From Paraspadella gotoi (Eukaryota > Animalia > Chaetognatha): a stretch of 64,000 nt of DNA. Of the stretch, positions 12,662 to 54,224 are shown one piece after another. Within the stretch, counting starts at the first letter, position 1; each line of letters opens with the position of its first letter. A model generated the notes under the pieces. The model worked only from the letters and a program-made list of their open reading frames with translations. It did not search any database and had not been told where the DNA came from. A program made the position numbers and the translations under genes. The stretch is taken from NCBI GenBank assembly GCA_051294375.1, contig CM119271.1, positions 5,118,724 through 5,182,723 on the forward strand. The letters are read 5' to 3'.

Positions 12662-13920
12662 TTATAGCGTCATTCCTGACGAAGCAGTCAGGTAGGCGGG
12701 CGTCCCAGGTGGTAAACTTGGCATAGTGACCCAAGTGACCAGTGGTAGGGGAGACTCGGGGAGGTTTGGAGAATCATGTGTGGAATGAAAGATGCTGGTG
12801 GGTGGAACCTCTTGATTCATTATGGTGTTGGAGGAAGCAGTGATTGATTGGGTGTCTAGAAGGGGAGGTTCAATTCTACCATTAAGACTTTGCCAGTACC
12901 ATAGCTGAGGAGGTATTCCATAGTCATTTAACCACTTTGCTGGAAATTCATCATCATAGTATTCTTTAATAGTATCCAAATCAAACAATGACCTGATATT
13001 TGTATACATTTCATCTCTTAGCATATAACTGGTAGGGCACTTATGAAAAGTTAAAGGGACATTAATACAGATAGTAGCTCCTTGTTCTTTGTGAATGCTT
13101 AATAGGGCCTGTTTGCTGTCTCTAAGCACATCATCTGCAACTTTTATAGCGCTAGCATAGTTTTTTTCATCTGCATAAATCATGGTCATCAATCGAACTT
13201 TCGCACTCAAGAAGACAATTTTCTCTAAGTCAAAATGTTTAGCTGGTATGAACTCATAATAAGGGATGCAAATTTTTAGCCTTCTGGCTCTTAAACTCTG
13301 TGATGTCACTTAAACAGCTGAACTGACAATAATCTCCTCTTCATTATTTGACTTCCATTTGTATGCTCTGGTTGTGTAGTATTTTTTAAGCTCCTTAAGT
13401 GTCCGTGTCAGTTCTTTTTCAGTGTTATCAGCCCCCTTCCCTTCTACCCATTCTGTTATCCACTGGATTCTACTTTGTCTAATTTCTGGTAAAGTTAATA
13501 ATGACAAGTATACAGATACCACATCAGCACTTTCCTTGTGGAATCTCATCTTTTCCTCTGGTTTTGCCAAATTGACTGCTTCTTCTAGCTGATTCAATAT
13601 TGGGTTTTCATTTAATATATCAATCATTGACCCATCACTCAAAAATATTTCTGCTGTTCTAGCATTTTTCCCTGAGGTTTCAGTGTCCCTTGCTTGGCTG
13701 AGGTGATCATCGGGACCCTGCTCACCTCTTAGCGAAAACCCGATGGCTGAGCTGGAAGTGAAGTGTTGATCGATGGGAGTGGAGGCTGTGGAGTTTGGGC
13801 TCGAGATGTTTCAACCTGGGTGGCCTGAAGTGGAGCTTGTTGGTGCTGGGCACCTTGAGGAGGAGGTTGTGGCTGGTGCTGGGTGTTTTGAAGTGGAGGC
13901 TGTGGGTTGCCCTGTGCCGT
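12662..13920 (-). pseudogene. Intronless foreign ORF fragment (~400 aa, one in-frame stop at 13310, Q/P-rich N-terminal part), unidentified
   Basis: ORFs 13310-13642 and 12662-13309 are in the same frame; CpG-poor and compositionally unlike both flanks. Confidence 0.5.
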
Positions 13921-14874: not shown

Positions 14875-17056
14875 TCATCGCCCCGTCTTTTCGTCGTCCC
14901 TCGTCGTCGTCGTCTCTCTCCTCCTCTCTTCGGCGTCCAAGATAGCCGCGGCTCGAAACGCCAGATGATGGTTCAAGGGGAGGGAATAATAAGGACTCAG
15001 CCAGAAGCGTTTGTCCTGTTAGTAATATATATAAATATATATAAATATCTATATATAAATATAAACAAAAAAAATTCAACTACTAACTTTGAAATTGCTG
15101 AGGGAAATTTTTTCCAATTCGACCTTGAACATGGAATATCCGACCGTTCTAAATTGAGTTAGTCTGTGTCGTCTGGGCCTGTCATGACTCAAGACGTCTT
15201 CGAACAAGTCTGTCGTTATAATAATAACAATGATATTTACATAGTACTACATAAATGTAAATCTCTCTCTCTCTCTAAAAACCGACCTGTATTCGTCAAA
15301 CGTTGAGCCACCAATCTCTTGGTTATTCCCTTACATCTGGCGCTTTTTTTGACGACGACGAGCCTCTTATCATCGTCATCAACTCCTCCTCAAAGGGCCA
15401 GGTCCTGGCGACGTATCCGTCGGGATCCCCAAAAGTGGCCAGAGTTTCCAAGGAATAACATTTTGGCTTGAGGGATACGCATTTGTACAAAAATCCGGCA
15501 CCGGACTCGTCTGTTATTTTAAAAAATGAAATGAAATAAAGTAAAAGGGAAAAAGGGTGAAAGAGAGAGAAAGAGAGTGAGAGAGAAAGAGAGAGAGTGA
15601 GAGAGAAAGAGAGAGAGAGAGAGAAAAAAAGATTTTTTTCTTTCTCGCACCTTTTAAACAACTGAGTCGATTCCTGTTATAATCCCTCCACAGACGTAAT
15701 AAAGGCATCCTGTCCTTATTTTCCAACCAATATGGATGAGTTTCTTTGGGACTATAAATGATATAATTATATATTGTACCAATTTCATAATATAAATAAT
15801 CTAATAATGATAATTCAATAATCAATTATTATTATTTATTAGTCTTTAACGTCCAAAATGAAACATAGATTGGCCCAATCGCACCAAAACGAAGCCAGTC
15901 GGCTCTCGTATCGAAAAGCCAATACAAACGAATCCTAAATTATTATTATTTATTAAGTAGAATATTAATCCCCAAAAAAATCGGCTCATCGTGTCATTTT
16001 ACTGTAATCTCACGATCACGTCGGTCCTTGCTTTGTTAAATACTCTTCTTAAATTCATTTGGAAAAATAAAATATTGTGAAATTTTGAATTTTCCAATAT
16101 GATACCTGGATAATTAATTAATTGATTAATTAATTGAATAATTAAATAATTTCTGCGGTAAATAAAATACCTCCGACCATTATCGGTTTGTTCAAATTTT
16201 GAGACATTGCTTTACCTATAATGATAATAATAATAATAATCCAAAATGAGTTTATCCTGCTGCCGCCGCATCGCAATAATCGTGACCCATCGACTCATCG
16301 AGTCGTCGGGTCTCTCGAGTCGCGACTATATACTTAGTAACTAAAGCCTACCCCCCTCTCCCTTCAAGGTGAGTACTATCGCAAATCGATCTCGGTACTC
16401 GAATAGTCGCGAACCGAGGGCGTCACTCGATGAGCCAAGGTGCCATGATTAAAGAATAAAGTTGGTAAACATATTATCACGATGATAAAAATACATAGAG
16501 ATTGGTAAAATCTTGATAAATTAAATGTGTGCTGCCATCGTCCTCAGACGATAAAGGATCGAAGCCCACTTCGCGATTATTGGCAACGGCGTAGCGCTCA
16601 GAAACTTCGCATATGCCTCCGCGAATCATGCGATTGTACGTTAAATACTGAAGGGAATCGGCTTTGCTAAATAATGGGATTTCCACCTTGGTCAAGGACA
16701 GAAAAATGTCGAGACTGATTCCTGCGAAACAGTAATAGTGGGTCGGCGAAATGCCGTGAAGTTTTATCGTGTTTTCTATAAAGTATTCGAAAACTGCTTC
16801 TAAGGTCAAAGTGTCTATCGTATTGTAAAATAGAATTATTTGACCAAAGTTGCTAAAGTTGAACATACGATAGATGGCGAGTGTTTTTTCGTAATCTTAT
16901 CGACTGCAAACTTCCTTGGACATATCGTCGGTAAATTCCTCGATGAACGGAAGGTTGGGATCGCTCAAACGGTCCAACGAAAATGCCGAATATGGCATTT
17001 TTATTTTTTGTAAAATTTGCATAAAATTTTGCCCTTTAGCTTCCCCATAAGTTTCC
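14875..17056 (-). pseudogene. Intron-containing protein-primed family B DNA polymerase (Polinton/Maverick/adintovirus type), copy 1, decayed
   Basis: Exons give KMPYSAF..DTLTLEAVF..PTHYY..IRGGICEVSERYAVANN..YQDFTNLY / GKAMSQ (internal deletion) LNKPIMVG / ..NDT / DSFVL..LDVKDY / PKETHPY..CLK / DESG..LKPKCYS..CKGITK / ..KISLSNFK / DKRF..LPLNH; stop at 14875. Confidence 0.9.
16283..16447. mobile_element. MITE-like imperfect hairpin inside a PolB intron
   Basis: ctcatcgag/ctcgatgag and tcgcgactat/atagtcgcga inverted pairs. Confidence 0.45.
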
Positions 17057-18119
17057 ACCTATGACCTATGACTACACGATTCTACGGCGATGTTCATCTG
17101 TACATCGGAATCTCCCAAAACCCTTTCTACACACTGGTGCCATCTATCGAAATTTTCCCCTAATAGTTCTACGCTAAATCTATTGAAGAATGATCTGTAA
17201 CCTAATAAATTTATTAGGAAATCTTCCCCCTCTTCCCAATTACTAAACTCTACCTTACTCAGAATTTTATATGATATAGTATACATTTCAAATATATCCC
17301 ACATAAGAGAGTAAGAAAAACCGGTAGAAAAATGTATCATGTTGAAAAACTGTTAGTCCGGTTAAGTCACATACTGTAGAAACGGGGTCCGATTCAAACA
17401 CACTTTGTCTTTTATTTCTTTCTCGCTATCTCTATCTCTCTTTTGATTTTCTCTCGCTATCTCTCTCTCTCTTTTATTTGAACTCGGCGAACTCGTTGAA
17501 GTCGAGATAAGAGATCTTGAGATCTTTTTTTGAGTTTGATCTTTTGTTTAAATTATTGAGTTACTTAAGTACATCTACAAACCAAGGTATAATTATATTA
17601 TCTTTTGTTTAAATTTTCTTTGACTCGAATTTTCTTTGACTCGAATAATCTTTTTAAGTACAATCTTTTAATTACTCTCTCTCTCTCCTCTCTTCTCTTT
17701 CTCTCTCTCTCTCTCTCTCTTTTCTCGATCTTTCTCTCTGTCCATTTTTGCACGTGAATCACACCTGATTTTTGAAAATGGATTTGAGGATTTGAGTAAA
17801 TACAAACATTAAACATTTTGATGTCAATCGTATCTAAAAGCTTTTTACAATGCTTATCAGGATTGTTTGATTTGAGATTTAACAGTAGTTACTTTTTTAG
17901 ATTTAAAAAAATTAAGATATAATATCGTTAAAATGAGTATATTAAATTATAAAAAAAAACAATGACACAAAAAATAAATGAATGATTAATTAAATATATC
18001 AATTATTTAAAAAATTAGCCAGCGTAAAAAACCCGTGATTTTATTTAAAAAATAAGAAAATTTTTAAAATTAAGGGAAATATTGAATTAAACGATTTAAG
18101 AGAAAGAATTAATTAAAGA

Positions 18120-19918
18120 GAGCTGGTGATGTCGAAAAGCACATCGTCATCACTTCGTTTAATTCTTCTCCAAATGTTTAACTCAATATTTCCTTTTAAA
18201 TTAATTTGGCTAATCGGGGGTTTTTGATGCTGGCTAATTTTTTGGGGGAAGGGATAAAAGATGAGAACATATTTACATTGTGGGTTGCAAGGGGGGGAAA
18301 TTTATTTCCTCTGGTTCTTCCTCTTCCTGTTCTTCAACCAAATATTTGACGATTTTAATTGTCTTTTTTCTTTTACATTTTTCTTTACCATTTTAAAATA
18401 ATAATAATGAAACTTAAATACATAATTTAAAATCATCAAATTACCCAGAGAAAGAGTTATTAACATCCAGTTTGTTGAAGACTTGGACACTGGGGATGGG
18501 TAGGATGAGCTGGAGGAGGAATTTGCAATCGAGGTCGCCTGTGACGCAGATGACGTCGCCGGGGTCGATGATATCGACATTGTTTTGTTTACCGGCGACG
18601 TCATAAACGTCGGCGGCCTAGACGAGGTCGGTGTAGTTGTATCCGTTTGCACCCTCGGGGACGACGCCGAGGGTGCTGAAGATGCCGGGTCTTTTGATGT
18701 GTTACTTGTAGATTTCGGCGACGCCGGAGCGGTGCTGCTCAACGGCGCCGACGAAGAACTTGGCGCCGACGAAGAACTTGGCGCCGGGTCTCTTGATGTC
18801 CTACTCGGCGACGCCGGAGCGGATGTGCTCAACAGCGCCGACGAAAAACTTGGCGACGCCGGAGCGGTGCTGCTCAACGGCGCCGACGAAGAACTTGGCG
18901 TTGGGTCTCTTGATGTCCTACTCGCCGACGCCGGAGCGGATGTGCTCAACGGCACCCACGAAGAACTTGGCGACGCCGGAGCGGATGTGCTCAACGGCGT
19001 CGCAGCTTTCGAGGTGGCGGACGAAGATCTTGGCGACGCCGGAGTGGTTGTCTTTATCGGCGCCGAAACCCTTGACACCGCAGACGAAGTATTTCCCAAC
19101 GCAGTTGTGCTTAACGGCGAGGTTGTTGTAGTTGAGGTGGTTGACGCCGGAGCGGGTGACGTGCTCAACGGCGTCCAAGGTGATGACGACAACGGCGCCG
19201 GAGCAGATGACGAGCTCAATGGCGCCTGTGTTCGGGACGTCGTCGTCGTCCATGACGACGTCGCCGATGATTCTTTTTTAATAATTCATTGTGGTAAAAA
19301 AGGGTTAATGGGGACGGAATGAGAATAGATTGAATAAACTGGGAGGGGAATTTGATTAGCAACGTTAAGAGGTAATAAATGGGGGTTAAGATGGACGAGG
19401 TGGGGTGGGAGGTGAATATGATAGATCGAGGGGATGAGTAATGTAAAATGGTAAGCTGTATTGTTAAGAACGGACAATATGGGGTGTTTTGGTTAAAAAT
19501 AATTATCGCTCGGGTTATGATTTGGGAATTGGATTTTGAATTTCATCATTGGATTCATAAGCGGAATCGGAGTCTGAATCCATGTTGAAGGTTATGAAAA
19601 AATTTTTTAGTTTAGAAAAATGAAATAACAAAAAAGTGAAAACGAGGAAGAGGAAGAGACAAAATAAAAACAATGAAAAGAGACTTTCATCTTGTTTTTT
19701 TTATGATAAAGAAAAAAAACATTTTTTGGTATTTCATTTTTTTATTTTATAAAAATAAAAACTGGGTATAATTATATTAACAATAATAATGAATGAACTT
19801 ACTTTTTGGAGTCGTAGTTTTTTTTGAATGCTGCGTAAAATGATGCACTTTTGACGGGTTTAATTGACCCGAAGTAAGAGAAAAGAAGAAGACAAAAAAG
19901 AACAAAAGTAAAATGCAT
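18120..19918 (-). pseudogene. Spliced type I membrane mucin-like glycoprotein gene of the element (left arm)
   Basis: Signal-peptide-like exon MHFTFVLFCLLLFSYFGSIKPVKSA (19918-19803, gtaag donor); S/T/P repeat exon; TM NWMLITLSLGNLMIL..; tail with KNPRLxQINL. Confidence 0.65.
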
Positions 19919-25600: not shown

Positions 25601-26274
25601 CTGGATAAAGGGGGAGGGGGAAAAGGTATAATGTGGGAATAAGAAAATTTGTGAATTCATTCATAATTCATTCATTCATTAATAATCTTACCAGATCATT
25701 TTGACGGCATCGTATTTTGAATTTTTTTCTTTAATGGCTTCCAAGGACAAACTAGTTAAAAAGAATAGATAAAAATGTATTACATTAAATGTCTAATGTC
25801 TCATGTAATAAGACGAGAAATAAAAATGAAATGACATATTTCCATATTTATTTATTTTACTTACTGAACTTCTTCATTTGCTCCAAAACGACTTCCTCCC
25901 CTCTTTTTTCCGAGAAAGTGGGCCATTTTTTTCTTAAAGGAACTTCTTCTCAATCGTTTTACCTTTTGTCTACAAAGAGGAAAAAAATTAAATTAAGTTC
26001 TAAGTTGTATAATACATTCAAAATTACCTTAAAATTATATTTTCTATTTTTAATGAATTAATCGCGTCTATCAGTTGAACGAGTTCAACATCCCTAGTTG
26101 TTCGATTAGATAGCGTATATACAAATTGAAATGATTTTACAATGAACTAGTGATGTCAAAATGATATCATCATCGTCTTCATATTCGTTTAATTCCTCTC
26201 CTAAGTTAGATAATTCTGTATTTTCTCTTGTGTCAAATTTATTTGGCTTAATCTAGGGTTTTTTACAGTCGCTA

Positions 26275-26525
26275 TTTTTGTTAGCAAAAACCTCAGCCAC
26301 TAATATATACAAAGGCATTGAGGGAGAATCTCCCTGCCTTAATCCTCTATTAACCATTATTTCTTCTGACCAATGACCATTAACTAAAATTCTACTATTC
26401 ACCTTCTTATGTTCGACCCAAAGCCATATTTTTCCAATGCCTTAAAAACAAAACTATGCTCAACCCTATCAAAACATTTTTCAAGATCTAAGAATATTAA
26501 GGCTCCCTCTTTATTATTCAATTCA
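26275..26525 (-). mobile_element. L1/Tx1-like LINE reverse transcriptase fragment
   Basis: GALIFLDLEKCFDRVEHSFVFKALEKYGFG and (other frame) SRILVNGHWSEEIMVNRGLRQGDSPSMPLYILVAEVFANKI. Confidence 0.88.
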
Positions 26526-28300
26526 AAGAGTGGATTGGCATATATCTGGTACATCCTCTCTATGTCCCATTTAAACTGTCCATCTTTGCACAATGATTGA
26601 AGGAACCAGCACTCCCACTGCTGGAAGCCTCGGGAGACACGAGTGTCCCAACCTGCGATATCTTCTGATATAAACTGCATTTGGCTTTTCCACAAACTCT
26701 CCCTTCCAGATCGAAATTTGGTTGAGAGAAAATCTCTATAGTCATACAATGGCAATCCAGATACACTGAATGGCATCATCTTAAGAAATCGTCCAACATC
26801 TCCAAAAATCCTACATTCCAACAACCTCATGGATGCTGACATGAACCAGATAAGGCGACTCCCTTTCTTCTGATGAGAAGTGCAGTCCATTTTTTTCTCT
26901 TTTTTCCCTGTCGTGTTGAAAACAGCTCCTTTCGGTACACCTGTCCTCATTCTCTTCTCCTTGTCTTGAACTATCTCAATCCAATCCTCTCTATCTAACA
27001 GGTCACCCATGTCCTTTCCATAATGAGCATCTTGCTTACCAAGAGCACCCCTACGGTTTGCTGCTATCTTCATCTCTTCCCATGGAGTCCTACCCAGAAC
27101 AAATCCTTTCTTTCGGCAATAGTTGCGCAAACCCTCATAGCATTTACCCACATACTTTCAATGGGGATGATTTTCACGCGGGAGTGTATCCACAGTGGAG
27201 GACAGAATTTTTAGAGATAAATAATTCGAGACCAAAGTAAAATGAATGTGAATTTATTTTAGCATAACATCGAGAATAAAATAACGACTTTTATATGAAC
27301 TACTTTGTTTACCAAAGTAGGAATGTGAAAGGGAATGGAATTTTAGGCCGAGAAATATTATTGACATTTTTGCAATTTACTGAATTCTTTCCCACAATCT
27401 TCACTCGGCCATGCTACTAAAATTTCAAAAAACAAAATAATATTTCATAATATGATACTATAAATTTTCTCATTGATAAAGAAATACAAAATCGTTTTGA
27501 ATTGTTTAATTAAAATGTGTGAAATAAAAATGATTAAAGCAGTAATTTGACGAATTAAGGAAAATGATGAATTGCGTCTTTTGTTTTTTTTGGCGATCAC
27601 ACGTGTGATACAACCTTCACTCCACCTTCTTCTTGAAGACATCATAAGTGCTTGTAAGTGGTTGTACTCGTAATCTTATAAAACTGAAATGACCTCAGAT
27701 GATTAGCCATAGAACCAATCAACGCCATGACATAACTATTCTTCACTCCACCTTCAGACCCCCTAGAAGCCACAAACCAGCGCTTAATCTCCTTCATAAA
27801 GTGAGTTATTCGCCTCGAAGGATGAACAACTTCACCATGCTCCTCTTCCTTGATACTCTCAGAGTAATCTGGTTGTTCAAGCACAGTTCCCCCTGCTTAG
27901 CTGGGACCACCGTTTGCCACTGTGGCTCCCCAACTTCTATCAGATCAGTCTTATTGTACTTTTGATATCAGCAGCAGTAACTTCAGCTGTAACCTCATGC
28001 AAAATGCCTTTACCGGTTGACAAAAAATACATCTCAAAATTCGAGTACTCACTGGTTTGCAACCTCACCAATATTCCTCGACCAGTTAATACCTGCCAAC
28101 TTTTAAGCAGAGCCAGGATTCCAAGGGCAGAGGATTTTCACAGCAAAATTAGCCGTAGGGATTTTCTCAAACCATGGTGTCAACTTTGACAGAAGTCGGA
28201 AATTTCTCTCACCCTTCCCCTTGAGAGTACGCTCAGATTCCCCACCATCAAATGCCAAAAAAGAAACGTACCTTGGTGAGTACTCAGAAAAATCACCTTC
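26526..28300 (-). other. Endogenous flavivirus-like element: NS5 methyltransferase through RdRp motif A
   Basis: FDGGES..FAVKILCPW..GILVRLQTSEYSNFEMYFLS (MTase); YDVFKKK|VDTLP; AANRRGALG; FNTTGKKEKK..KGSRLIWFM (motif F); DIAGWDTRVS (motif A). Confidence 0.93.
27194..27621. mobile_element. 428-bp insertion in the NS5 element (solo LTR or MITE)
   Basis: 4-bp TSD CCAC (27190-27193, 27622-27625); termini AGTGGAGG...CCTTCACT. Confidence 0.75.
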
Positions 28301-28599
28301 AAATCATTGTATTCTAGTTGAGTAAATAAATCAAACATTTTGATGTGAATCGTATCGAAAAGCTTTTTACAATGCTTATCAGGATTGTTTGATTTTACAT
28401 TTACAGTAGTTACTTTTTTAGAATTAATTAAAAACTAAGATATAATAACGATAAAAATGAGTATATTAAATTATAAAAACAATGAGACAAAAATCAATGA
28501 TTAATTAAATATATACAATTACCTAAAAAAATTAACCAACATAAAAAACCCTTGATTTTATTAAAAGAATAAGAAAATTTTTAAAATTAAGGGAAATAT

Positions 28600-30128
28600 T
28601 TAATTAAACGATTTAAGAGAAGAATTAATTAAAGAGAGCTAGTGATGTCAAAAAGGACATCATCATCATCTTCATTTAATTCTTCTACTAAATCGCTTAA
28701 TTCAATATTTCCCTTTAAATTAATTTGACTTAATCTGGGGTTTTTTTTACGCTGGCTAATTTTTTTGGTGTAGGAATAAAAGAAAAAAACATGTTTATTT
28801 TATGGGACGCTAGGGGTGGGGAAATTATCTTTTCTGGTTCTTCTTCTTTGTCTTCAATTACAATATTTGATGATTTTAATTGTTTTATTTCTTTTACATT
28901 TTTTTTGACCGTTTTAAAAATAATAATAATAAAAGTTCAAATAACAATTAAAATCATCAAATTACCTAGGCAAAGAGTCCCTATGATCCAATTTGAAGTG
29001 TTTATTGGATGTCTTGCCACGGAGCTTGAAATGTTTGAGAGTTTTTGCGACATTGAAGACGAGACCTCTATTGCCGCTGTCGTGGAATAGGATGTTGAGG
29101 ATAAATTGGAGCAATGAAAAATAAAAAAATAAAAAATAAGAATCCAAAATCTACATTGAATAAAAAAATACATATAATAGAAAATATGAGATCATTTGTA
29201 AATTCATTACTTGATTGTAGAAGACGAGACTGCTGCCGCCGTCGTAGAATAGGATGCCGAGGATAAATTGGAGCTATGAAAATAAAAAAAATATAAAATA
29301 AGAATCCAAAATCTATATTGAACAAAAAAAATACATATAATAGAAAATAGGAGATCATTTGTAAATTCATTACTTGATTGTAGAAGACGAGACTGCTACC
29401 GCCAGTCGTAGAATCGGACGCCGGGGACGGGGTAGATGAGGAGGAACTCGCCTTTGAGGCCGCCTTTGACGCCGATGACGTCGCCGGGGTCGACGTTATC
29501 GAGATTGTTTTGTTTACCGGCGATGTCATAAACGTCAGTGGCACGGACGAGATGGGTGAGATGGACGTCATTGTCCAAGGAAAACGGGTCCTTGACGTCA
29601 CTGGAGTACTTTTATCCTTTTGCACCCCCGGGGACGATGCCGAGGGTGCTGAGGATGTTAAAGTAGATGACACAGGTTTAGAGGATGTTGGAGTAGATAA
29701 GGAGCTCGGCGCCGGAGCGATTGACGTGCTCAACGGTGCCGGAGCGGTTGACGACGGAGTAGATGAGGAGCTCGGCGCCGGAGCGATTGACGTGCTCAAC
29801 GGCGCTGGAGCGGTTGACGTGCTCAACGGCGCCGGAGTGGTTGACGTGCTCAACGGCGCCGGAGCGGTTGACGACGTTGGAGTAGATGAGGAGCTTGGCG
29901 CCGGAGCTGATGACGACAACAGCGCCGGAGCGGATGATGAGCTCAACGGCGCCAGTTCGGGACGTCGTCGTCCATGACGACGTCACCGTTGATTCTTTTC
30001 ATTTTTTCATTGGGGTAAAAAGGGATTAATGGGGACGGAGTGAGAATAAATAGAGTATACTGGGAGGGGAATTTGGTTAACTACGTTAACAGGCAATAAA
30101 TGAGGGTTAAGATGGACTAGGTGGGGTG
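28600..30128 (-). pseudogene. Mucin-like TM gene copy with tandemly repeated small exon/intron units
   Basis: ORF 29068-29946 S/T/P repeats; TM NWIIGTLCLGNLMILIVI; ~170-bp unit repeated within 29060-29400. Confidence 0.65.
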
Positions 30129-30496: not shown

Positions 30497-31189
30497 TTAA
30501 GAATTGCCATTTATTCCTCCAGTCCAATTATTCAATAATAGTTGGAAGAAATTCTCAACGCTTGTTCCTAAACCAATATTCATTAGATCATATCCATTTT
30601 TGATATCCTCAAAATTGCCATACATATAAAAAGGGATTCTATTGTCATACGACGGTTGAAGAATTTGATTTATAAATGTCGCTCCAGCTGCTACATATGA
30701 TACAGTTCCGACTGTTGCTGCTCCAGTAGGCGTTAAATCACCAACGACATCTGTCCTACTCTCATCATAATAATCAACCGTACAAATGGCACCTCCAGCA
30801 GCCACAGGAGCACGCAATTGTACTGTTGGTCTTTTATTATCATACAAAATCGTACCAGCTGGAGTTAGTGTTATATTAAATGGTATAGGCGTTCTATCCT
30901 GTACGTCGTATGGCGCATTGAAATTAGTTGTTCCTAAATTGGTTAAATAATTATCCAATGTTGATCTTCCATTCAATAAAAACAATTGTAGAACATCAAC
31001 CAAATATGACAAAATCGATGAAGTATTCTTATCATCAAGACCATCTGGCCAAATTAATTTATCTCCTCTAGCTGTTTCAAATCTTGACGGAGTCTGAATC
31101 GTACTCGTCGCCATTATGATAGCATTATCAATTAGCGCTAAATTCTTTAAAGTAAAATAAGACTTTGGTATCACAGAAGTATAATCCAT
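30497..31189 (-). CDS. Intact intronless 230-aa ORF of unknown, possibly DNA-virus structural, origin
   Basis: ATG to stop without disruption; T/G/N-rich; tightly abutting neighbouring frames; single copy in the window. Confidence 0.55.
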   Translation of the reverse strand: MDYTSVIPKSYFTLKNLALIDNAIIMATSTIQTPSRFETARGDKLIWPDGLDDKNTSSILSYLVDVLQLFLLNGRSTLDNYLTNLGTTNFNAPYDVQDRTPIPFNITLTPAGTILYDNKRPTVQLRAPVAAGGAICTVDYYDESRTDVVGDLTPTGAATVGTVSYVAAGATFINQILQPSYDNRIPFYMYGNFEDIKNGYDLMNIGLGTSVENFFQLLLNNWTGGINGNS

Positions 31190-31929
31190 GGTTTATAGAT
31201 GTAGATACAAAGAATACATTTTTTACAATTATTTTTACAACCGTTGCGAAATCCTTCTGAATAGAAGTAGAATTAAAAAGAGAAGTTAATTCCTTGAAGT
31301 TTTTTTTATTTTTAGCAAATAGACAACAAAAAAAATTATCCATCAAGGATTGGAATTCGCTTAGAAAGAGGTATACCGTCCCCAAGTTCAACATGACGGT
31401 CTTTGTTTGTCCAGTGGTTGACGTGAAATGGTACAAACTTTGGAAAATATATAATTTTTTATTAATATTTTTTATAAAGATAGACTAATAAATAACAAAA
31501 CTAAAGTACTGCAATTGGATGCTGGTTCTGGCCACTGGCGAAACTTGGTTCGGCGCCTTCCAATACGATAGAGCCATTGACAGAAAGCGGGAGATAAAAA
31601 TTATATCTCTCGTCACATTGTTGTAGCCCGATGTCTCTCAGATACTAATATATGTATAAATAATTTTTTATTTTATATATTATCCCTTGTTCTAACCACA
31701 AAATAAAAAGCTCACCTTTGAAAATTATCGATGTTGGTACGTAGATGATCTACATACCGATGGTACAGCGCGTCCAGCTCTTCAAATGTGAGATTAAGCT
31801 TATAGACAGTGATCGGAGAAGGGGCCGATGATGAAGAGGCGCCCGACCCGGAATCGTATTTGTCTTTCTTAATCACCAGATGCATCGGCTTACGCGTAAC
31901 CACCGCATATGGTGATAGTGGAATCGTCA

Positions 31930-36120: not shown

Positions 36121-37609
36121 AGAGAGTACTAAAAGCCGGGAGAAACGGGGTCCGATTCAAACACACTTTGTCTTTTTATTTCTTTCTCGCTATCTCTATC
36201 TCTCTTTTGATTTTCTCTTGCTCTCTCTTTTATTTGAACTCAGCGAACTCGTTGAAGTCGAGATAAGAGATCTTGAGATCTTTTGTTTAAAATTATTGAG
36301 GTTACTTAAGTACATCTACGAACCAAGGTATAATTATATTATCTTTTGTTTTTCGTTTTCTTTGACTCGAATTATCTTTTTAAGTACAATCTTTTAATTA
36401 CTCTCTCTCTTTCTCTCTCTCTCTCTCTTTTTCTCGATCTTTCTCCCTGTTAATTTTGCACGTGAATCACACCCGGATTTTTGAAAATGGAANNNNNNNN
36501 NNNNNNNNNNNNNNNNNTTGAGGATTTGAGTAAATACAAACATTAAACATTTTGATGTGAATCGTATCTAAAAGCTTTTTACAATGCTTATCAGGATTGT
36601 TTGATTTGACATTTACAGTAGTTACTTTTTTAGATTTAATTAAAAACTAAGATATAATAACGTTAAAAATGAGTATATTAAATTATAAAAACAACGACAC
36701 AAAAATCAATGATTAATTAAATATATACAATTATTTAAAAAATTAGCCAGCGTAAAAAACCCTTGATTTTATTAAAAGAATAAGAAAATTAGGGAAATAT
36801 TTAATTAAACGATTTAAGAGAAGAATTAATTAAAGAGAGCTGGTGATGTCAAAAAGCACATCATCATCATCTTCATTTAATTCTTCTCCTAAATCGTTTA
36901 ATTCAATATTTCCCTTTAAATTAATTTGACTTAATCGGGGGTTTTTGGACGCTGGCTAATTTTTTGGGGTAGGTATAAAAGATGAAAACATGTTGACTTT
37001 GTGGGATGCTAGGGGTGGGAAAACTATCTCCTCCGGTTCTTCTTCCTCTTTGTCTTCATTTAAAATATTTGACGATTTTAATTGTTTTATTTCTTTACAT
37101 TTTCTTTACCATTTTAAAAATAATAATAATAATAAAACTTAAAATAACAATTAAAATCATCAAATTACCTAGAGAAAGAGTTAGTATTATCCAATTTGAA
37201 GTAGAGTTGGACGCTGGAATGGGGTAGATGAGAAGGAGGAGGAACTCGCCTCTGAGGTCGCCTTTGACGCCAAAGACGTCGCTGGGGTCGATGTTATTGA
37301 GATTGTTTTGTTTACCGGCGACGTCATAAACGTCGGCGGCCTGGACGAGATAGATGGGATGGAAGATTCCGGTGACGTCAAGGACCCGTTTTCCTTGACA
37401 ATGACGTCACCGGAGTAGTTTTATCCTTTTGCACCCTCGGGGACGACGCCGAGGGTGCTGAGGATGTAGATAAGGAACTTGCCGCCGGAGCATTTGTGCT
37501 CAACGGCGCAGGAGCCTTTGACGTTGTACTCGACGAAGATCTTGGCGCTGGAGCGCTTGTGCTCAACGGCGCCGGAGCCTTTGATGTTGTAGACAAAGAG
37601 CTCGGCGCC
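36121..37609 (+). mobile_element. Left half of another element copy (TIR type B + mucin gene 3' part on -)
   Basis: agagagtactaaaagccggg.gaaacggggtccgattcaaacacac; colinear with 17380-18750. Confidence 0.8.
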
Positions 37610-37852
37610 AATCCTTGGATTCGGCCCAAGCTTCATTGGTCAAGTCATCCTTCCCAGGTGCTGCCGACATGCTCATCTTGGCAAATATTTCATCCACAGT
37701 TCGACAAGGCATGTACTTCACAATCCTACTCAATCCCGATCTATAAGAAACGGGAACATACTGCTGGGAACAAAATTCAACATCCTCCAAGTGATAATGG
37801 ATCACACTAGGAGCATCCAATGGCATATCCTTACGGACAAACCCATGTCATT
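37610..37852 (-). other. Flavivirus-like NS5 RdRp fragment (motifs D-E/thumb)
   Basis: NDMGFVRKD..EDVEFCS..MPCRTVDEIFAK..EAWARIQG (cf. dengue NDMGKVRKD..QVPFCSH..VPCRNQDELIGR). Confidence 0.85.
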
Positions 37853-38010
37853 AGAGAGATAATAATAAACGGGATTGGAGCTTGATCCAGAACCCGAGGC
37901 GGGGACTGGATCACTTTCTTTAATTTTCCGTCGCTATCTCTATCTCTCTTTTAATTCTCTGTCTCTATCCCTCTCTCTCTGATTAAAGTTCGATCTTGAG
38001 TTTAATTGCA
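37853..38010 (+). mobile_element. Polinton-like terminus (further copies start at 39576, 40135, 41689, 43427, 43974)
   Basis: AGAGA(GA)TAATAA.AAACGGG start; each abuts a sharply truncated ORF. Confidence 0.8.
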
Positions 38011-38015
38011 GGTGT

Positions 38016-38566
38016 TTATTTCACATGAATGTTATTTTTTAGGTAAACATGATTGACAAACAGCACCACAATTTTCACAATGATTGGGATACAAAGCAGC
38101 AATATTGTAAAATTGATAAATGATAAAATCAAGAAATTTTTGATGTTAGTTAGTCCTTGGATTTGAATAAAAGAAAGTTTTTTTTCAATGACTGCATTGT
38201 TGGATTCATTCATTAATTCTGCGGGTGGATAATATCCGTATGGTTTGATGATTAACTCGGTTTCATCTTCTAACGTCAGGTCCATGGTAAGTTTGATTTC
38301 AAAGTATTTTCTTCATAGACAAAAGTGTCTTCTGCTTCGAAGGTTGTGCAATCGAAGTTATCAGGATCACAGAAGAACTCGTACAGTTTATCGAAAGGTC
38401 CATTTTTAACTAAATGCTTTAGTTCTCTGAATGGTATTTGAATCGAGCACATAGCAAAGATTGGTTCTCTCTGATGAATTTGCACGAACTTGACTTTCTT
38501 GTTATTCATTGCACAGAAATAAACGTCTTCGCAAATCTCGAAGGCCTTTCCCTTTTTAATTTCCAT
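38016..38566 (-). pseudogene. TIR-adjacent element gene (frameshifted); copy at 41853-42403
   Basis: MEIKKGKAFEICED..DLTLEDETELIIKPYGYYPP..; Cys-rich tail shared with 23728-24060. Confidence 0.6.
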
Positions 38567-41445
38567 TTTACTTTAATTAAGAAACAAAATTGAAAAATCA
38601 TATAATTAAACAAATCAAAAACGCAAATCAATACAATTATTTACAATGATTTTACTATTCTAAATCTAAATCAATACATATTTATAATTGAACAATAAGG
38701 GGGAGCATCCATGATGGCAAAAACTCCCCCCTCTTTGTCACTCGAGTCTACCTCCTCACCCATCCTCACCAACTCCTCATCATCTTCAATCAACACTCTC
38801 CTCAACTCCATCACTCCTTCCCTCACCCTAATCTTCTCGGGCTCTCGGGTACATCGTTCTCCCCGATGTGATGCAGGTGTTTGGGTTTACCCACATCACA
38901 CGATGAGAGATCCGTCTCGTAGAGGCTGATGAAAATATAGAGAAAAAGTTAGTTTGAATTGTAAGTTTTAAAAATAAAGTTTTATAATCTTACATGGAGA
39001 TTAGACCTTCTACATATAGTAGGTCTTGCGCGTTTGCCCGGTCGGTCTTGTTGACCGGGCGCCCCATGAAGAATGATGCCCTTAGGAGGCACCATTGGGT
39101 TGGGGGATCATGGGGCCGCAGGAGTAGGGGAAATTTTTTTCCTCCTCCCCGATTACGTAATCTTCCATCCTCTCAAAAACATACATCTTCTCAGAGATGT
39201 ATGTTTTAAGTCTTTAAGTCTTTAACGCTTTCTAGGCAAACCATGTCTGGGACATGGTTTGCCATAGCTTCTTCATGAAGCTTTTTCCAATCGATATCTG
39301 CCATCTGTTAATATAAATTTTTACATTCAATCAGATTCATAGAGTTCGAGAATCTTATTACAATGATCAATAAAAAAATTAAGAAAAACGCTAATGTTGA
39401 TAAAACTTTTAACTACGAAATTTAAACAAGAATATTCTGGGTCTGGTCCTCCAAGAAACAAGATATCAAAATCTTTAGCATCGTCTTTAATCCATAGTGT
39501 TGCCGTTAGTCCTTCGCATAGTTTACACTCGAATTTTTAGAAGTTGGGAGATCGATTTGGGTTGAAAAGAAAATCAGAGATAATAAAAAACGGGGTCTGC
39601 AGCTTGATGTAGAACCGGGGCGGGGACTGGAGCAATTTCTTTAATTTTCCATCGCTATCTCTCTCTTTTAATTTTCTCTCGCTATCCCTCTCTGATTAAA
39701 GTTCGATCTTGAGTTTAATCGCAGGTGTTTATTTCACATGGTTTTTTACAAAGTAAACAAAAGTAAACACATCACAATATTATTTTTTAGGTAAACAAGA
39801 TTGACAAACAGCACCACAATTTTCACAATGATTGGGATACAAAGCAGCAATATTGTAAAATTGATAAATGATAAAATCAAGAAATTTTTCAACATTGGTT
39901 AATCCTTGGATTTGAATTAAAGAAAGTTTTTTTTCAATGACTGCATTGTTGGATTCATTCATTAATTCTGCGGGTGGATAATATCCATATGGTTTGATGA
40001 TTAACACGGTTTCATCTTCCAACGTCAGGTCCATGGTAAGTTTGATTCAAAGTATTTTCCTTCATAGACAAAAGTGTCTTCCGCTTCGAAGCTTGTACAA
40101 TCGAAGTTATCGGGATCACAGAAGAACTCATACAAGAGATAATAAAAAACGGGGTCTGCAGCTTGACCTAGAATTCGGACGGGGACTGCAGCTTGATCCA
40201 AAACCTGACACGGGGACTAGATCACTTTCCTTTTTAATTCCCTTTAATTTCCTATCGCTATCTCTATCTCTCTTTTAATTCTCCGTCGCTATCCCTCTCT
40301 GATTTTAAACTCGAGTGGTCGATCTGAAAATACGTAACCGTTTTTGAATTCGAATTATTGATAATACTTAAGTACAAATGACGAATTTTTACCCTGAGAA
40401 TTTTCCATATGATGAACTAGGATTTCGATTACATTTACAGTAGATACTGTTTACAATGAATTAAACACCTTTGTTATGACTACGAGAAATAATATAATTA
40501 TTAACATTTATACAGTGAACATAAAAAAAACAGAACAAGAACATACAATTACCCAAAAAATTGACCACCGTAAAAAACCATAGATTAACCTAAAAATAAA
40601 TTTGGTTCAACAAAGGGAAAATATAATATTTTCAAATATGATTTAAGAGAAGAATTAATTAAAGAGAGCTGGTGATGTCAAAAAGCACATCATCATCATC
40701 TTCATTTAATTCTTCTCCTAAATCGTTTAATTCAATATTTCCCTTTAAATTAATTTGACTTAATCGGGGGTTTTTGGACGCTGGCTAATTTTTTGGGGGT
40801 AGGTATAAAAGATGAAAACATGTTGACTTTGTGGGATGCTAGGGGTGGGAAAACTATCTCCTCCGGTTCTTCTTCCTCTTTGTCTTCATTTAAAATATTT
40901 GACGATTTTAATTGTTTTATTTCTTTTACATTTTTCTTTACCATTTTAAAAATAATAATAATAATAAAACTTAAAATAACAATTAAAATCATCAAATTAC
41001 CTAGAGAAAGAGTTAGTATTATCCAATTTGAAGTAGAGTTGGACGCTGGGAATGGGGTAGATGAGAAGGAGGAGGAACTCGCCTCTGAGGTCGCCTTTGA
41101 CGCCAATGACGTCGCTGGGGTCGATGTTATTGAGATTGTTTTGTTTACCGGCGACGTCATAAACGTCGGCGGCCTGGACGAGATAGATGGGATGGAAGAT
41201 TCCGGTGACGTCAAGGACCCGTTTTCCTTGGACAATGACGTCACCGGAGTAGTTTTATCCTTTTGCACCCTCGGGGACGACGCCGAGGGTGCTGAGGATG
41301 TAGATAAGGAACTTGCCGCCGGAGCATTTGTGCTCAACGGCGCAGGAGCCTTTGACGTTGTACTCGACGAAGATCTTGGCGCTGGAGCGCTTGTGCTCAA
41401 CGGCGCCGGAGCCTTTGATGTTGTAGACAAAGAGCTCGGCGCCAA

Positions 41446-41688
41446 TCCTTGGATTCGGGCCCAAGCTTCATTGGTCAAGTCATCCTTCCCAGGTGCTGCC
41501 GACATGCTCATCTTGGCAAATATTTCATCCACAGTTCGACAAGGCATGTACTTCACAATCCTACTCAATCCCGATCTATAAGAAACGGGAACATACTGCT
41601 GGGAACAAAATTCAACATCCTCCAAGTGATAATGGATCACACTAGGAGCATCCAATGGCATATCCTTACGGACAAACCCCATGTCATT
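41446..41688 (-). other. Flavivirus-like NS5 fragment (duplicate of 37610-37852), in frame with the mucin-TM ORF 40750-41751
   Basis: Same motifs; ..EAWARIQG|LAPSSLSTTSKAP.. Confidence 0.85.
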
Positions 41689-44446
41689 AGAGAGATAATA
41701 ATAAACGGGGATTGGAGCTTGATCCAGAACCCGAGGCGGGGACTGGATCACTTTCTTTAATTTTCCGTCGCTATCTCTATCTCTCTTTTAATTCTCTGTC
41801 TCTATCCCTCTCTCTCTGATTAAAGTTCGATCTTGAGTTTAATTGCAGGTGTTTATTTCACATGAATGTTATTTTTTAGGTAAACATGATTGACAAACAG
41901 CACCACAATTTTCACAATGATTGGGATACAAAGCAGCAATATTGTAAAATTGATAAATGATAAAATCAAGAAATTTTTGATGTTAGTTAGTCCTTGGATT
42001 TGAATAAAAGAAAGTTTTTTTTCAATGACTGCATTGTTGGATTCATTCATTAATTCTGCGGGTGGATAATATCCGTATGGTTTGATGATTAACTCGGTTT
42101 CATCTTCTAACGTCAGGTCCATGGTAAGTTTGATTTCAAAGTATTTTCTTCATAGACAAAAGTGTCTTCTGCTTCGAAGGTTGTGCAATCGAAGTTATCA
42201 GGATCACAGAAGAACTCGTACAGTTTATCGAAAGGTCCATTTTTAACTAAATGCTTTAGTTCTCTGAATGGTATTTGAATCGAGCACATAGCAAAGATTG
42301 GTTCTCTCTGATGAATTTGCACGAACTTGACTTTCTTGTTATTCATTGCACAGAAATAAACGTCTTCGCAAATCTCGAAGGCCTTTCCCTTTTTAATTTC
42401 CATTTTACTTTAATTAAGAAACAAAATTGAAAAATCATATAATTAAACAAATCAAAAACGCAAATCAATACAATTATTTACAATGATTTTACTATTCTAA
42501 ATCTAAATCAATACATATTTATAATTGAACAATAAGGGGGAGCATCCATGATGGCAAAAACTCCCCCCTCTTTGTCACTCGAGTCTACCTCCTCACCCAT
42601 CCTCACCAACTCCTCATCATCTTCAATCAACACTCTCCTCAACTCCATCACTCCTTCCCTCACCCTAATCTTCTCGGGCTCTCGGGTACATCGTTCCTCC
42701 CCGATGTGATGCAGGTGTTTGGGTTTACCCACATCACACGATGAGAGATCCGTCTCGTAGAGGCTGATGAAAATATAGAGAAAAAGTTAGTTTGAATTGT
42801 AAGTTTTAAAAATAAAGTTTTATAATCTTACATGGAGATTAGACCTTCTACATATAGTAGAAGGTCTTGCGCGTTTGCCCGGTCGGTCTTGTTGACCGGG
42901 CGCCCCATGAAGAATGATGCCCTTAGGAGGCACCATTGGGGTTGGGGGATCATGGGGCCGCAGGAGTAGGGGAAATTTTTTTCCTCCTCCCCGATTACGT
43001 AATCTTCCATCCTCTCAAAAACATACATCTTCTCAGAGATGTATGTTTTTAAGTCTTTAAGTCTTTAAGTCTTTAACGCTTTCTAGGCAAACCATGTCTG
43101 GGACATGGTTTGCCATAGCTTCTTCATGAAGCTTTTTCCAATCGATATCTGCCATCTGTTAATATAAATTTTTACATTCAATCAGATTCATAGAGTTCGA
43201 GAATCTTATTACAATGATCAATAAAAAAATTAAGAAAAACGCTAATGTTGATAAAACTTTTAACTACGAAATTTAAACAAGAATATTCTGGGTCTGGTCC
43301 TCCAAGAAACAAGATATCAAAATCTTTAGCATCGTCTTTAATCCATAGTGTTGCCGTTAGTCCTTCGCATAGTTTACACTCGAATTTTTAGAAGTTGGGA
43401 GATCGATTTGGGTTGAAAAGAAAATCAGAGATAATAAAAAACGGGGTCTGCAGCTTGATGTAGAACCCGGGGCGGGGACTGGAGCAATTTCTTTAATTTT
43501 CCATCGCTATCTCTCTCTTTTAATTTTCTCTCGCTATCCCTCTCTGATTAAAGTTCGATCTTGAGTTTAATCGCAGGTGTTTATTTCACATGGTTTTTTA
43601 CAAAGTAAACAAAAGTAAACACATCACAATATTATTTTTTAGGTAAACAAGATTGACAAACAGCACCACAATTTTCACAATGATTGGGATACAAAGCAGC
43701 AATATTGTAAAATTGATAAATGATAAAATCAAGAAATTTTTCAACATTGGTTAATCCTTGGATTTGAATTAAAGAAAGTTTTTTTTCAATGACTGCTTGG
43801 ATTCATTCATTAATTCTGCGGGTGGATAATATCCATATGGTTTGATGATTAACACGGTTTCATCTTCCAACGTCAGGTCCATGGTAAGTTGTATTTTCCT
43901 TCATAGACAAAAGTGTCTTCCGCTTCGAAGCTTGTACAATCGAAGTTATCGGGATCACAGAAGAACTCATACAAGAGATAATAAAAAACGGGGTCTGCAG
44001 CTTGACCTAGAACTTCGGACGGGGACTGCAGCTTGATCCAAAACCTGACACGGGGACTAGATCACTTTCCTTTTTAATTCCCTTTAATTTCCTATCGCTA
44101 TCTCTATCTCTCTTTTAATTCTCCGTCGCTATCCCTCTCTGATTTTAAACTCGAGTGGTCGATCTGAAAATACGTAACCGTTTTTGAATTCGAATTATTG
44201 ATAATACTTAAGTACAAATGACGAATTTTTACCCTGAGAATTTTCCATATGATGAACTAGGATTTCGATTACATTTACAGTAGATACTGTTTACAATGAA
44301 TTAAACACCTTTGTTATGACTACGAGAAATAATATAATTATTAACATTTATACAGTGAACATAAAAAAAACAGAACAAGAACATACAATTACCCAAAAAA
44401 TTGACCACCGTAAAAAACCATAGATTAACCTAAAAATAAATTTGGT

Positions 44447-46460
44447 TCAACAAAGGGAAAATATAATATTTTCAAATATATCCCAAGAATTAAATGAAAA
44501 AGAAGATGACGATAATGTACTTTTTGATATCAAAATGTTGTGATGATCAAAAAGTACATTATCGTCATCTTCATTTTCATTTAATTCTTGGGAAAGATTT
44601 GAAAATTCAATATTTTCTCTTGGTTGAACCAAATTGATTTGGCTTAACCTAGGGTTTTTAACCGTGGCCAATTTTTTGGGTTGGGGAAAAATGGGGAGAA
44701 CATATTTACACGGGGGGAGGCTTCGGCATCTTCTTCTTCTTCTTCTATCCTATGTAATGTTTGTTTGACTTTAGTTTTTTTCTCTCATTTGAATTTTGAA
44801 TTTACACTTTTAACTTTTTTAAAAATAACGATAACGAAAATTAAAATAAAAACTAAAATTAACAAATTTCTCCCAGTCCAATTGTCATCAAAATCCAATT
44901 TGAACTATGAAAAGAATAAAAAAACCTGAATTAAGAAAAACGGAAATATGATGATAACATTTAACAATATAAAATATTCACATTAATTTTTTTACTTGTT
45001 CTTGATCACTTGATTTGGATCCTGCCAACGCCGTGACGTCACCGCAGTTTTTGGCGCCCTCTGGTGACGTCATGGCCATGGACGGCGTCGTCTTTGATCC
45101 CGGTGACGTCGCCGATGTAAGATGGCATTGACATCCGGCGACGTCTCAAACGTTGATATGACGATGATGATTGATGACCTCGCTGAAGAATTTTTAGGGG
45201 AGGAGATGAGGGGCCGCCGGTGACGTCGTCGCCCATGGAATAAGGTCCGTGTGACGTCACCGACGCGATGGAGGAGGAGGGAAGGGAATTTGTAGACGAC
45301 AGGACGGATGACGGCCGTGGAGGAGTAGGAGACAGGAGGGCATTGAGGATGACGGACGGAGGATGGAATGGAGGGCATTGAGGGATGACGACCCGGAGGA
45401 TGGAACGGAGGGCATTGAGGATGCGGGACGGAGGGAGGGCGGACCGGAGGATGAGACGGAAGTGGCTTACCGGTGACGTCGTTGCCCATTGAGAAAAGGT
45501 CTGTGACGTCACCGGCGTGATGGAGGAGGGTTGCGAGACCGCGTTCGGGCGATTGCGGCGGACGTATTACGGACGACGTAGACGGGAGGACGGGATGTTG
45601 TTTGGGGTGGTCGGTGACGTCGTTGCCACTGATGAAATAAAAATGGTCCGTGACGTCACCGACGCCGTATTCACGGACGAAAATGAGAATTTAGCCGGTG
45701 ACGTTGTTGTTGGATGGAAGGTGGTTTGCGCCATCACTGGCGTATTCCTTGATGCTTCATTCGTCCGTGAAGATGTCCATGTCGCCGTCGTCGCCCATTT
45801 TGCTAATCAAACCATTGGTTCAAATGGGTTGATAGCGATATGGTGGTGGGGTTGAGGGTTTACGTAAGATGGGAAAATTACTTGTTGGGCGATGTTAAAT
45901 GGGAGTAAATGGGAATTAATTTGGACTAAATGGGCTGGGAAGGTTATAGGTAAAATGGTGGGGGTAAATAGATCGTGGTAATAGGCGGTGGGTTCTATAT
46001 ACTACAAGGCGCGGGTTGGGTTCAATGTTAACGAATCGTCCTAGGGTTGGAGTGTTATTTTGGTTATTGTCGTCCGCGAGCCATAATGCGCTATCGGGAT
46101 GGGGAATTACCATTTTATACCCGCGGTATGAATTTTTTTTTTAGTTTAGTTATCAAGAAAGAGTAGTATGAGGTAAGATGGAAGAGGAAAAAGAAGAAAG
46201 TAAAAACAAGTGGGAATAGACTTTCATCTTGGTTATTTTACACGATAAAAAAAAGAAAAAAATTTTAGGGTATTTCTCGTACATTTTGCGGGAAAATCAT
46301 AAAAGAGTAATACTGTATGAGTAATAACAATCTGTTTCGAACTTTACTTCTCAGCGGCGTTGTTCCAGTGAATGAACGCCGTCGCGGTTTAATTGCGATT
46401 TAGTAATTACAAGAATAGAAAGAGAAGAAACAAAGAAAGTTATTTAAAAGACATTTTTTG
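44447..46460 (-). pseudogene. Mucin-like TM gene copy (second subtype, like 11100-12582)
   Basis: S/T/P exon, TM remnant, ATVKNPRLSQINL tail, upstream HHHIAINPFEP ORF remnant. Confidence 0.6.
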
Positions 46461-48407: not shown

Positions 48408-48556
48408 GATGTACAATCCATTTTATTTTCCTTCTTACCCGTGGTATTGAAAACAGCCCCCTTGGGGACACCCAACCTCATTCTCTTCTCCTTTTCCTGC
48501 ACAATCTCTATCCAATCTTCTCGGTCCAGCAAGTCACCCATATCTTTCCCATATCT
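48408..48556 (-). other. Second, divergent flavivirus-like NS5 fragment
   Basis: YGKDMGDLLDREDWIEIVQEKEKRMRLGVPKGAVFNTTGKKENKMDCT; protein almost identical to 26880-27022 but third codon positions largely differ. Confidence 0.9.
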
Positions 48557-48747
48557 TTCCTTTGGACCATTCGGCCCACTATTGGCAAATAATATCTAAA
48601 ATAGGAGTCGAGAAAAGAGATATAGTCAAACATTACTATTTTTGTTATTCTGATAATTTGTACTATTATTAAATTTAGAAATATTTTTCGTGTATATATT
48701 TAATCAGTTTTATCTTTTTTTAAATTAATAAAAGAGAGATAGAATAA

Positions 48748-48968
48748 GGTAACTTTGGGAGCCAACTTCCGGTTATGCTGATGACGTCATCCACATTCCA
48801 ATATGATGACGTCATCATTCTATTTATAGATTGGTGACTTCCGGTTCCGGTCACTTCCGGTTCCGGTCACTTCTGGTTCCGGTCACTTCCGGTTCCGGTC
48901 ACTTCCGGTTCCAGTCACTTCCGGTTCCAGTTACTTCCGGTTACGCTGATGACGTCACACATTCCAAT
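48748..48968. promoter_or_regulatory. Virus-like enhancer/origin array of ACTTCCGG (ETS-type) and TGACGTCA (CRE-type) motifs; related stretch 8728-8795
   Basis: 16-bp unit ccggttccggtcactt repeated about six times, flanked by tgatgacgtca. Confidence 0.55.
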
Positions 48969-53057: not shown

Positions 53058-54224
53058 ATCCTTATCACTGATGGCCAGAAGGTGTAAACTTATATCTCTG
53101 ACATCTCTTAATTGACGTTGAGAAGGGAGTCTGTAATGATGAACTCGATTTGTATCGAGTTCATGTGAATTTTGGTCGGCTTCATGGACGAGCCCGAAGT
53201 CAACGTTTTAGGTAAAAAAAAACTCCTCCTAGTTTGCTCATAAGTAAATGCCCCAGGATTTCTAATTAAAAAATGGGACGTTTGTTAGTACTATTGGGGA
53301 CATTTCAATGGTACTTTGCTCGTTTTCGTATTCATTGGTCAGTGGTCAATGGTCACGTTTGAATATTCGTGAGCCACCACCACCTCCTTAACACGAGTTT
53401 CGTCGTCGTCGTTGTTGTTGTCTTGACATCTTGGAATTAAATTCGAATATATTGGACCATCGTGGTCAGTTTCTCTCTCATTTGTACGATGCACTTCGAA
53501 AAACGTTGTCTCCTCTTCATTGTTGTTTGCGTTTCTAAATTCATTGTCCCACAAATACTCCCCCCTTCGTTTTCATCTTCAGAAAACGTTGATTCCCAAT
53601 CATTGTTTGAATAATAAATATTCTGACGGGTTATCTGATAATTGGTTTTTTTTTTAATTTTTATCAAGTTAGTCAAATTTTTTTTATCGTGATTGTTGAT
53701 CAGATAGTTCTTTAGTTTTTATATTGCGCCGTGAATGTGTACTGATAACAGGATTTGGCGAGAATGTGTACTGATAACACAATTTGGCGAGAATATCAAT
53801 GTCTATATCTCTATGGTTTTTTCCTATTTTTGAAAGCAGTTTCGAATTCCTCATGAAAAGTTGATAAAAGGAAATATTACTCTTTTTAGAAAATTATTTC
53901 ATTAAGTGGATCAAAATCCTAAAAAACTATTATCATTAACTTATGATTAAATTTTAGTATAAAAAATATAGTTCTTGGAATTTTTGGCTAACTTAATGAA
54001 ATAATTTTTGATTAAGACTTATATTTTTTTTGATGAGGAATTCAAATCTGCTTTCAAAACTAAAAAAAAAATATTTTAAAATTTTGACAATGTATAAATA
54101 TGGGCGTATGCGAAAATTGTAAAATTTCAAAATAATAATAATAATATAATTTAATGTTCTTTGGTCCAAGACTTCATGATTAACTATTCGAATTTTGATT
54201 TGCAACTTTCACTACGCCTTACTA

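Follow-up and report, generated by a model that had tools for sequence, protein, structure and literature searches.

The viral DNA of the bornavirus EBLN elements and of other viral mRNAs trans-mobilised by L1 is attributed to a LINE enzyme. Insertions of the EBLN type carry poly(A) and target duplications and are not known to have LINE sequence at the joint. Which host reverse transcriptase (RT) copies a non-retroviral RNA virus into DNA is usually deduced from the neighbourhood of the insert, and in the case of bornaviruses the part played by the LINE has been inferred from the poly(A) and the duplications. The locus described here, found in a 64-kb stretch of genomic DNA (the window), may likewise implicate a LINE enzyme and differs from EBLN in having LINE sequence at the joint itself.

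Endogenous viral elements (EVEs) that stem from the polymerase of jingmenviruses are known from Ixodes ricinus, Chironomus and Gerris (PMC9501327, PMC9752770). As far as the available portions of these papers go, our locus is similar in that segment-1 (NSP1) DNA resides in an animal genome in more than one viral variant, but its viral lineage is distant, with 35-42% identity to the nearest proteins found. The accessible text of the Ixodes paper suggests a role for LINEs, citing Russo et al., and presents no virus/LINE joint (PMC9501327); the available parts of two further papers contain nothing on LINE joints (PMC10675110, PMC9962485).

In insects, the virus-retroelement hybrids seen experimentally involve LTR elements, i.e. 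Ty3/gypsy, Pao/Bel, Diver and others in the accessible sections of the reports (PMC6797480, PMC5857290, bioRxiv 10.1101/127498), whereas the partner here is a non-LTR element. Like the insect nrEVE clusters, as depicted in those sections, the present locus joins RNA-virus sequence to a retroelement and holds viral fragments on one strand of a repeat-rich region. In contrast to them, its array is composed of unidentified repeats, and pPolB-type fragments lie nearby.

The 5' RNA/LINE-1 chimeras, including U6/LINE-1, are explained by template switching or by RNA ligation before copying; they were catalogued for cellular RNAs, and the words "viral" and "virus" occur 0 times in the text of the paper (PMC11838501). 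Compared with the chimeras as described there, our locus also has the non-LINE part 5' of, and in the same sense as, a 5'-truncated LINE, but the partner is an RNA virus gene and the window allele is devoid of poly(A), target duplication and endonuclease motif. No report of a germline RNA-virus/LINE joint was found in the open-access, term-matched literature, which is weak evidence of absence.

Identity and extent of the viral sequences

The original prediction named the viral part flavivirus NS5. The polymerase does belong to the Flavi_NS5 family, but it is not that of an orthoflavivirus; it is a jingmenvirus-like segment-1 NSP1. The best PDB matches were Jingmen tick virus NSP1 and its kin (E 1e-32 to 9e-31), with orthoflavivirus NS5 at E 2e-06 or weaker. 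A 37-row tree set 16 monopartite 10-11 kb genomes apart as a clade (100/100) that excluded the window sequence, as would not be the case for an orthoflavivirus NS5 EVE, closest by definition to the monopartite 10-11 kb flaviviruses. The window sequence was placed inside the 3-kb segment-type group (support 93/93), and such a grouping of NSP1 with single-ORF 3-kb segments marks a jingmenvirus-like segment-1 EVE. It sits on a long branch, and its exact place within this group is unsure. Twelve database homologs shared 35-42% identity with the window virus, and ten of them are proteins of 928-1072 aa encoded on 3.1-3.6 kb contigs and containing FtsJ, Flavi_NS5 and thumb domains.

These sequence relationships identify the insert as a segment-1 EVE that records a jingmenvirus-like lineage not yet sampled. 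Assignment to a jingmenvirus species or genus requires at least four segments and the application of identity cut-offs (PMC13155725). In the window, only segment-1 viral pieces were found, and no helicase family appeared in a Pfam scan of 300 of the 600 ORFs of at least 45 aa (the others being low-complexity or beyond the first 300). No close relative of the virus was found either: protein searches for closer or additional viral copies were empty, a metagenome scan using the ORF gave no match, and alignment-based scans returned distant viruses only.

The viral bounds originally predicted proved too short, as the insert occupies positions 26526 to about 28317 and additionally contains the methyltransferase and linker. 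This portion of NSP1 (approximately homolog residues 186-445), located on the minus strand at 27626-28317 by tblastn with the 12 homologs, carries four frameshifts (near 28115, 27950, 27895 and 27656) and a stop at 28304-28306. The frameshift positions were taken from a frameshift-aware alignment to six homologs, five of which gave all four. The sequence of 27626-28317 is identical in contigs of runs X1, X3 and X7. The second portion (26526-27193, minus strand) comprises the RdRp from the fingers to just beyond motif A, with one stop at 27158-27160; it ends about 40 residues past motif A, and motifs B-C are absent. The whole viral insert thus bears four frameshifts and two stops.

The two portions are separated by a MITE-like, AT-rich insertion of 428 bp (27194-27621), whose terminal inverted repeats (8 bp) are imperfect and which is flanked by a 4-bp target duplication (27190-27193 and 27622-27625). 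It is a high-copy element, the contig depth over 27215-27416 being 10-100 times that of the flanks, and it entered later than the viral insertion.

Further fragments of NSP1, all on the minus strand, are present in the window. A thumb fragment (homolog residues ~758-858; Flavi_NS5_thumb, E 8e-07) at 41443-41690 has host repeat at both ends and no LINE; it corresponds to the NSP1 region 3' of the virus/LINE junction, from which it lies 11-15 kb away. Its tandem-duplicate copy is found at 37610-37858, in a region that is 99% identical. A second RdRp fragment (48408-48590, right end approximate), also without LINE at its ends, is 78% identical to the main copy at the nucleotide level, with pS of 0.98 and pN of 0.036 over 48 codons. 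By these two values it came from a different viral lineage, copied on a separate occasion without leaving a LINE trace. Jingmenvirus-like viruses were captured at least twice in this host. When the duplicated thumb is counted once, five of the six virus-host junctions are without LINE.

The virus/LINE joint and the alleles of the LINE

The fusion of NS5 to a LINE RT is bona fide, and the ORF that contains it (26399-27157, minus strand, 252 aa from stop to stop) is as it was earlier described. The first 210 residues are flavivirid RdRp (Flavi_NS5 at residues 54-176, E 3.4e-08 in the domain search) and are bounded on the viral side by the stop at 27158-27160. Residues 214-248 match RVT_1, weakly and under the curated cut-off (E 6e-04). 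The LINE RT carries on in a second frame, 26253-26441, to which 17 of the 19 proteins matched in the ORF search align as RT-type by tblastn, several of them spanning both frames; within the LINE part, the ORF stops at the place where 25 letters of the LINE family are missing from the window copy. The predicted in-frame passage was indeed seen, but it has no evidential weight, being a one-in-three chance given the same strand, and in the thumb fragment at 41443-41690, too, the reading frame continues into a host repeat ORF.

We considered and rejected a functional NS5-RT fusion protein, as the viral motif A precedes the RT motif A, with no like-for-like swap, and as stops are found at both bounds. 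The virus-LINE fusion is a dead fossil and not a working fusion protein.

The junction, expected near 26525, was confirmed there, and the exact joint was set at 26526/26525, within a Phe codon of the minus strand, because the LINE-family contigs match through 26525 and then diverge. No additional letters are visible on the LINE side, and all seven runs examined (see below) contain a contig that crosses the joint with 0 differences.

The stretch is contained in nine public runs from three studies, of which seven, representing six listed samples, were examined. In X1 and X2 a single contig spans 26132-27260 with 0 differences, which amounts to formal bridging in two runs under a rule of 31 or more letters on each side. 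These two runs seem to be duplicate filings of a single data set, from which the assembly may have been made. In X3, X5, X7, X8 and X9 (samples S3-S6) the contig starts at 26496 and joins 30 LINE letters to 345-697 viral letters with 0 differences, one letter short of the rule; such an overhang of 30 LINE letters is expected in a 31-mer graph when a genuine joint adjoins a multi-copy repeat. No contig takes the viral sequence past 26526, and no unfused viral allele was observed in the seven runs of the six listed samples. The depth over 26555-27115 equals that of the sole junction-bearing contig in four of four runs, and among the listed loose ends (24 of 32) not one falls on the viral side of the joint. 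The junction is found in the reads of several samples, which speaks against its being either a later deletion between alleles or unsupported by reads.

In X1 and X2, the methyltransferase contig (27417-28481) is covered about 1.7 times as deeply as the RdRp-LINE contig (21 versus 12.7) and forks into two versions at 28366-28481. Depth and fork together hint at a second haplotype or copy without the RdRp-LINE side.

The LINE part is a 244-bp piece of an L1/Tx1-like RT (26282-26525, minus strand), reaching approximately from RT motif A to the RQG motif and differing from the family contig (269 letters) by 5-6 substitutions and a 25-letter deletion. The family contigs match 26282-26525 and then extend both ways into non-window sequence, and the window piece is therefore an internal LINE fragment. 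Their depth is 2.1-3.4 times that of the viral contigs. The long homologs of the LINE frame are ORF2 proteins with endonuclease, RT and zf-RVT domains (e.g. P0029 and P0014), and the RT is closest to such proteins over the 244-bp piece to which the comparison is confined. The L1/Tx1-like clade name is presumed from this domain architecture and not from a clade tree. Protein searches found no ORF2 of the LINE itself, and no further part of it was detected in the window, whether by means of 19 RT-type proteins, of which one is full length, or in the Pfam scan of 300 of 600 ORFs. The LINE of the window allele is cut at both ends, without poly(A), LINE 3' end or target duplication.

Contigs of X1 and X2 cross 26282-26525 unbroken, and those of S3-S6 break there; close sister copies of the LINE seem to be present in some samples only, and the family seems to have been recently mobile. 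Several more distant LINE subfamilies also map onto 26282-26525.

The same family takes a longer form in other samples. In X7, X8 and X9 (S4-S6) its contig begins at 26525 and extends unbroken for 1390, 1390 and 2135 letters, respectively, past 26282, whereas in X5, which bears the LINE/repeat joint of the window (26279/26282), it is exactly 269 letters long. This joint is present in X1, X2, X3 and X5 and absent from the listed contigs of X7, X8 and X9 (all but 1 of 9, all but 2 of 10, and 7 of 7 contigs, respectively). X7 has no contig cover over 25700-26406, a gap that was not weighed alone as the records are filtered. In X9 the depths of the viral (8.3) and native-upstream (19.3) contigs together account for that of the family contig (27.9). 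The depth-sum ratio for a full LINE run-on is 1.07 in X9, 0.30 in X7 and 0.44 in X8, so that only X9 agrees. By computation, the ORF2 sequence left 3' of the junction would amount to about 2040 nt. From these contig breaks, as opposed to reads, we infer that the virus-linked LINE of X7-X9 keeps its 3' part. As these runs are without the LINE/repeat joint and the contig runs on, the short LINE of the window allele is probably the result of later trimming at 26279/26282. Because the virus is joined to one specific LINE family that is apparently still polymorphic, and because some alleles seemingly keep the 3' half, the question of the RT becomes testable.

A run of five T, of the kind that precedes 1.2% of the positions in the array, lies at the LINE 3' joint. 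It was considered as a sign of target priming and rejected, since X7-X9 do not have this joint, which probably arose by a later deletion.

Possible origins of the joined virus and LINE

The junction, its presence in several samples, both identities and the later decay are demonstrated; we infer further that the ancestral allele carried the LINE 3' half and that both parts came in one event. The joint was originally interpreted as the template-switch footprint of the LINE. Its geometry (virus 5', 5'-truncated LINE 3', same strand) fits a LINE-made chimera, but the hallmarks of a single event are absent from the window and sequential insertion gives the same geometry. In a single event, the LINE RT would copy its own RNA from the 3' end and would then pass onto broken viral RNA, either by template switch or after RNA ligation preceding reverse transcription, which are indistinguishable here (PMC11838501). 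The chimeric cDNA would integrate as one unit, later to acquire the MITE, frameshifts and stops, and the LINE of the window allele would be trimmed at 26279/26282. We give roughly an even chance to this proposal, that virus and LINE were inserted together as one cDNA by the RT of that LINE; the weights attached to the explanations are our judgement and not a computed posterior.

Decay appears to be of similar age in virus and LINE, as the estimates overlap, with wide intervals. Divergence of the LINE piece amounts to 5-6 substitutions in 244 positions (0.7-5.3%) and that of the viral part to about 2.5%, calculated from its two stops (limits 0.3-9%), with 2.9 and 3.7 indel lesions per kb in the two parts. 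Chance abutment should be uncommon, because no second LINE RT piece was found in the 64 kb. No TT/AAAA-like endonuclease site occurs among the last 30 viral letters ahead of the joint, a mild point against insertion of the LINE into the virus. Against a single insertion, the same-strand order has a chance of 1 in 2, an interrupted insert could have had the thumb fragment as its displaced part, the window offers no poly(A), 3' end or duplication, the array is heavily rearranged, five of six junctions are LINE-free, the depth sums agree in X9 alone, and the experimentally seen hybrids of insects have LTR partners (PMC6797480, PMC5857290).

The flanks of the insert are different repeat modules. 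The cut 3' end of the LINE meets a module (26144-26279) paralogous to 28636-28766 (~74% identical), and the cut 5' end of the virus meets another (28318-28999) with paralogs at 17792-18474 and 36526-37202. No target duplication surrounds the virus+LINE unit in the trimmed window allele, to which this test was confined; the longest word common to the flanks has 5 letters and lies away from the joints. As in a U6/L1-type chimera, non-LINE sequence precedes a 5'-truncated LINE in the same orientation, but the window allele has no target duplication round the unit and no poly(A), and the contigs of X7-X9 run on for 1390-2135 letters without reaching the end. Since the duplication is missing and the 3' end is not seen, the locus cannot be filed as a chimera of this type.

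Less likely, though possible, is a sequence of two insertions, in which viral cDNA was integrated first by means of some RT and a 5'-truncated LINE later entered it at 26526. Deletions would then have taken away what else there was of the virus and also, from the window allele, the 3' part of the LINE. This would produce an identical junction. The viral insert did take a later transposon (the MITE with its 4-bp duplication), the LINE family was seemingly mobile in recent times, and the part of the virus that was displaced may survive as the thumb fragment at 41443-41690. On the other hand, two insertions require that the single LINE RT piece detected in the 64 kb hit about 2 kb of viral DNA, and in the sense orientation. 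Moreover, no unfused allele was seen in the seven runs, the two parts are similarly decayed, and the joint shows neither an A-rich endonuclease site nor a duplication, although the site preference of this family may differ.

We consider it unlikely that separate viral and LINE pieces were joined at a DNA break, by patch repair or deletion, the LINE enzyme being unrelated to the virus. Rearrangement joints are dense in this region, the main insert has a different module on each side, and two other NSP1 pieces lie between host modules without duplication or LINE, one of them in frame with a host ORF. However, LINE DNA is scarce in the window, and the long stretch of LINE that apparently continues 3' in S4-S6 suits a 5'-truncated retrocopy better than a short filler. 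Least of all can we credit an assembly chimera: contigs with at least 31 letters on both sides come only from X1 and X2, possibly the source of the assembly, but X3, X5, X7, X8 and X9 have contigs of 30 LINE and 345-697 viral letters with 0 differences.

Returning to co-insertion by the LINE enzyme, we tentatively suggest, at somewhat less than even chances, that the locus holds a heritable, population-wide RNA-virus/LINE chimeric fossil, in a region that repeatedly captured this virus group on one strand and is possibly an antiviral small-RNA cluster. If true, it would directly show a non-LTR RT capturing a segmented flavi-like virus, as U6/L1 does for cellular RNAs.

The surrounding repeat array

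The region 8900-48400 consists of scrambled, AT-rich modular repeats with RING-finger and Ser/Ala/Pro-repeat ORFs. We counted 134 clustered alignment ends in 39.5 kb, 61% of which is internally repeated. The viral pieces and the LINE piece are all on the minus strand, a pattern resembling that of a candidate one-strand piRNA cluster. A tandem duplication of about 3.8 kb (36725-44868; 94.7% identity with gaps, 99% near the thumb fragment) is either recent or a doubling by the assembly.

Two diverged copies of a broken DNA polymerase B (51522-53207 and 15836-16896; DNA_pol_B_2, E 1.4e-08 at 52185-52583) point to the remains of a Polinton-like element or another of pPolB type. They have no relative among the viral contigs. 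A unique 231-aa open frame (30500-31192, minus strand) amid the repeat modules could be a further captured gene; it had no Pfam, NCBIfam, PDB or viral-contig match, and its single-sequence fold was unusable (pLDDT 29.5). At 12665-13810 (minus strand) two unique open frames of 215 and 166 aa adjoin each other without a credible family match, the one at 12665-13309 having none in Pfam, PDB or NCBIfam.

To the left of the array, immunoglobulin-domain and caspase-domain fragments on the plus strand (316-840 and 3049-3357) fit animal host genes. On the far side of the second viral fragment, a short tandem array of a 14-bp unit (48835-48945) is bracketed by a 38-bp direct repeat (48765-48802 and 48933-48968).
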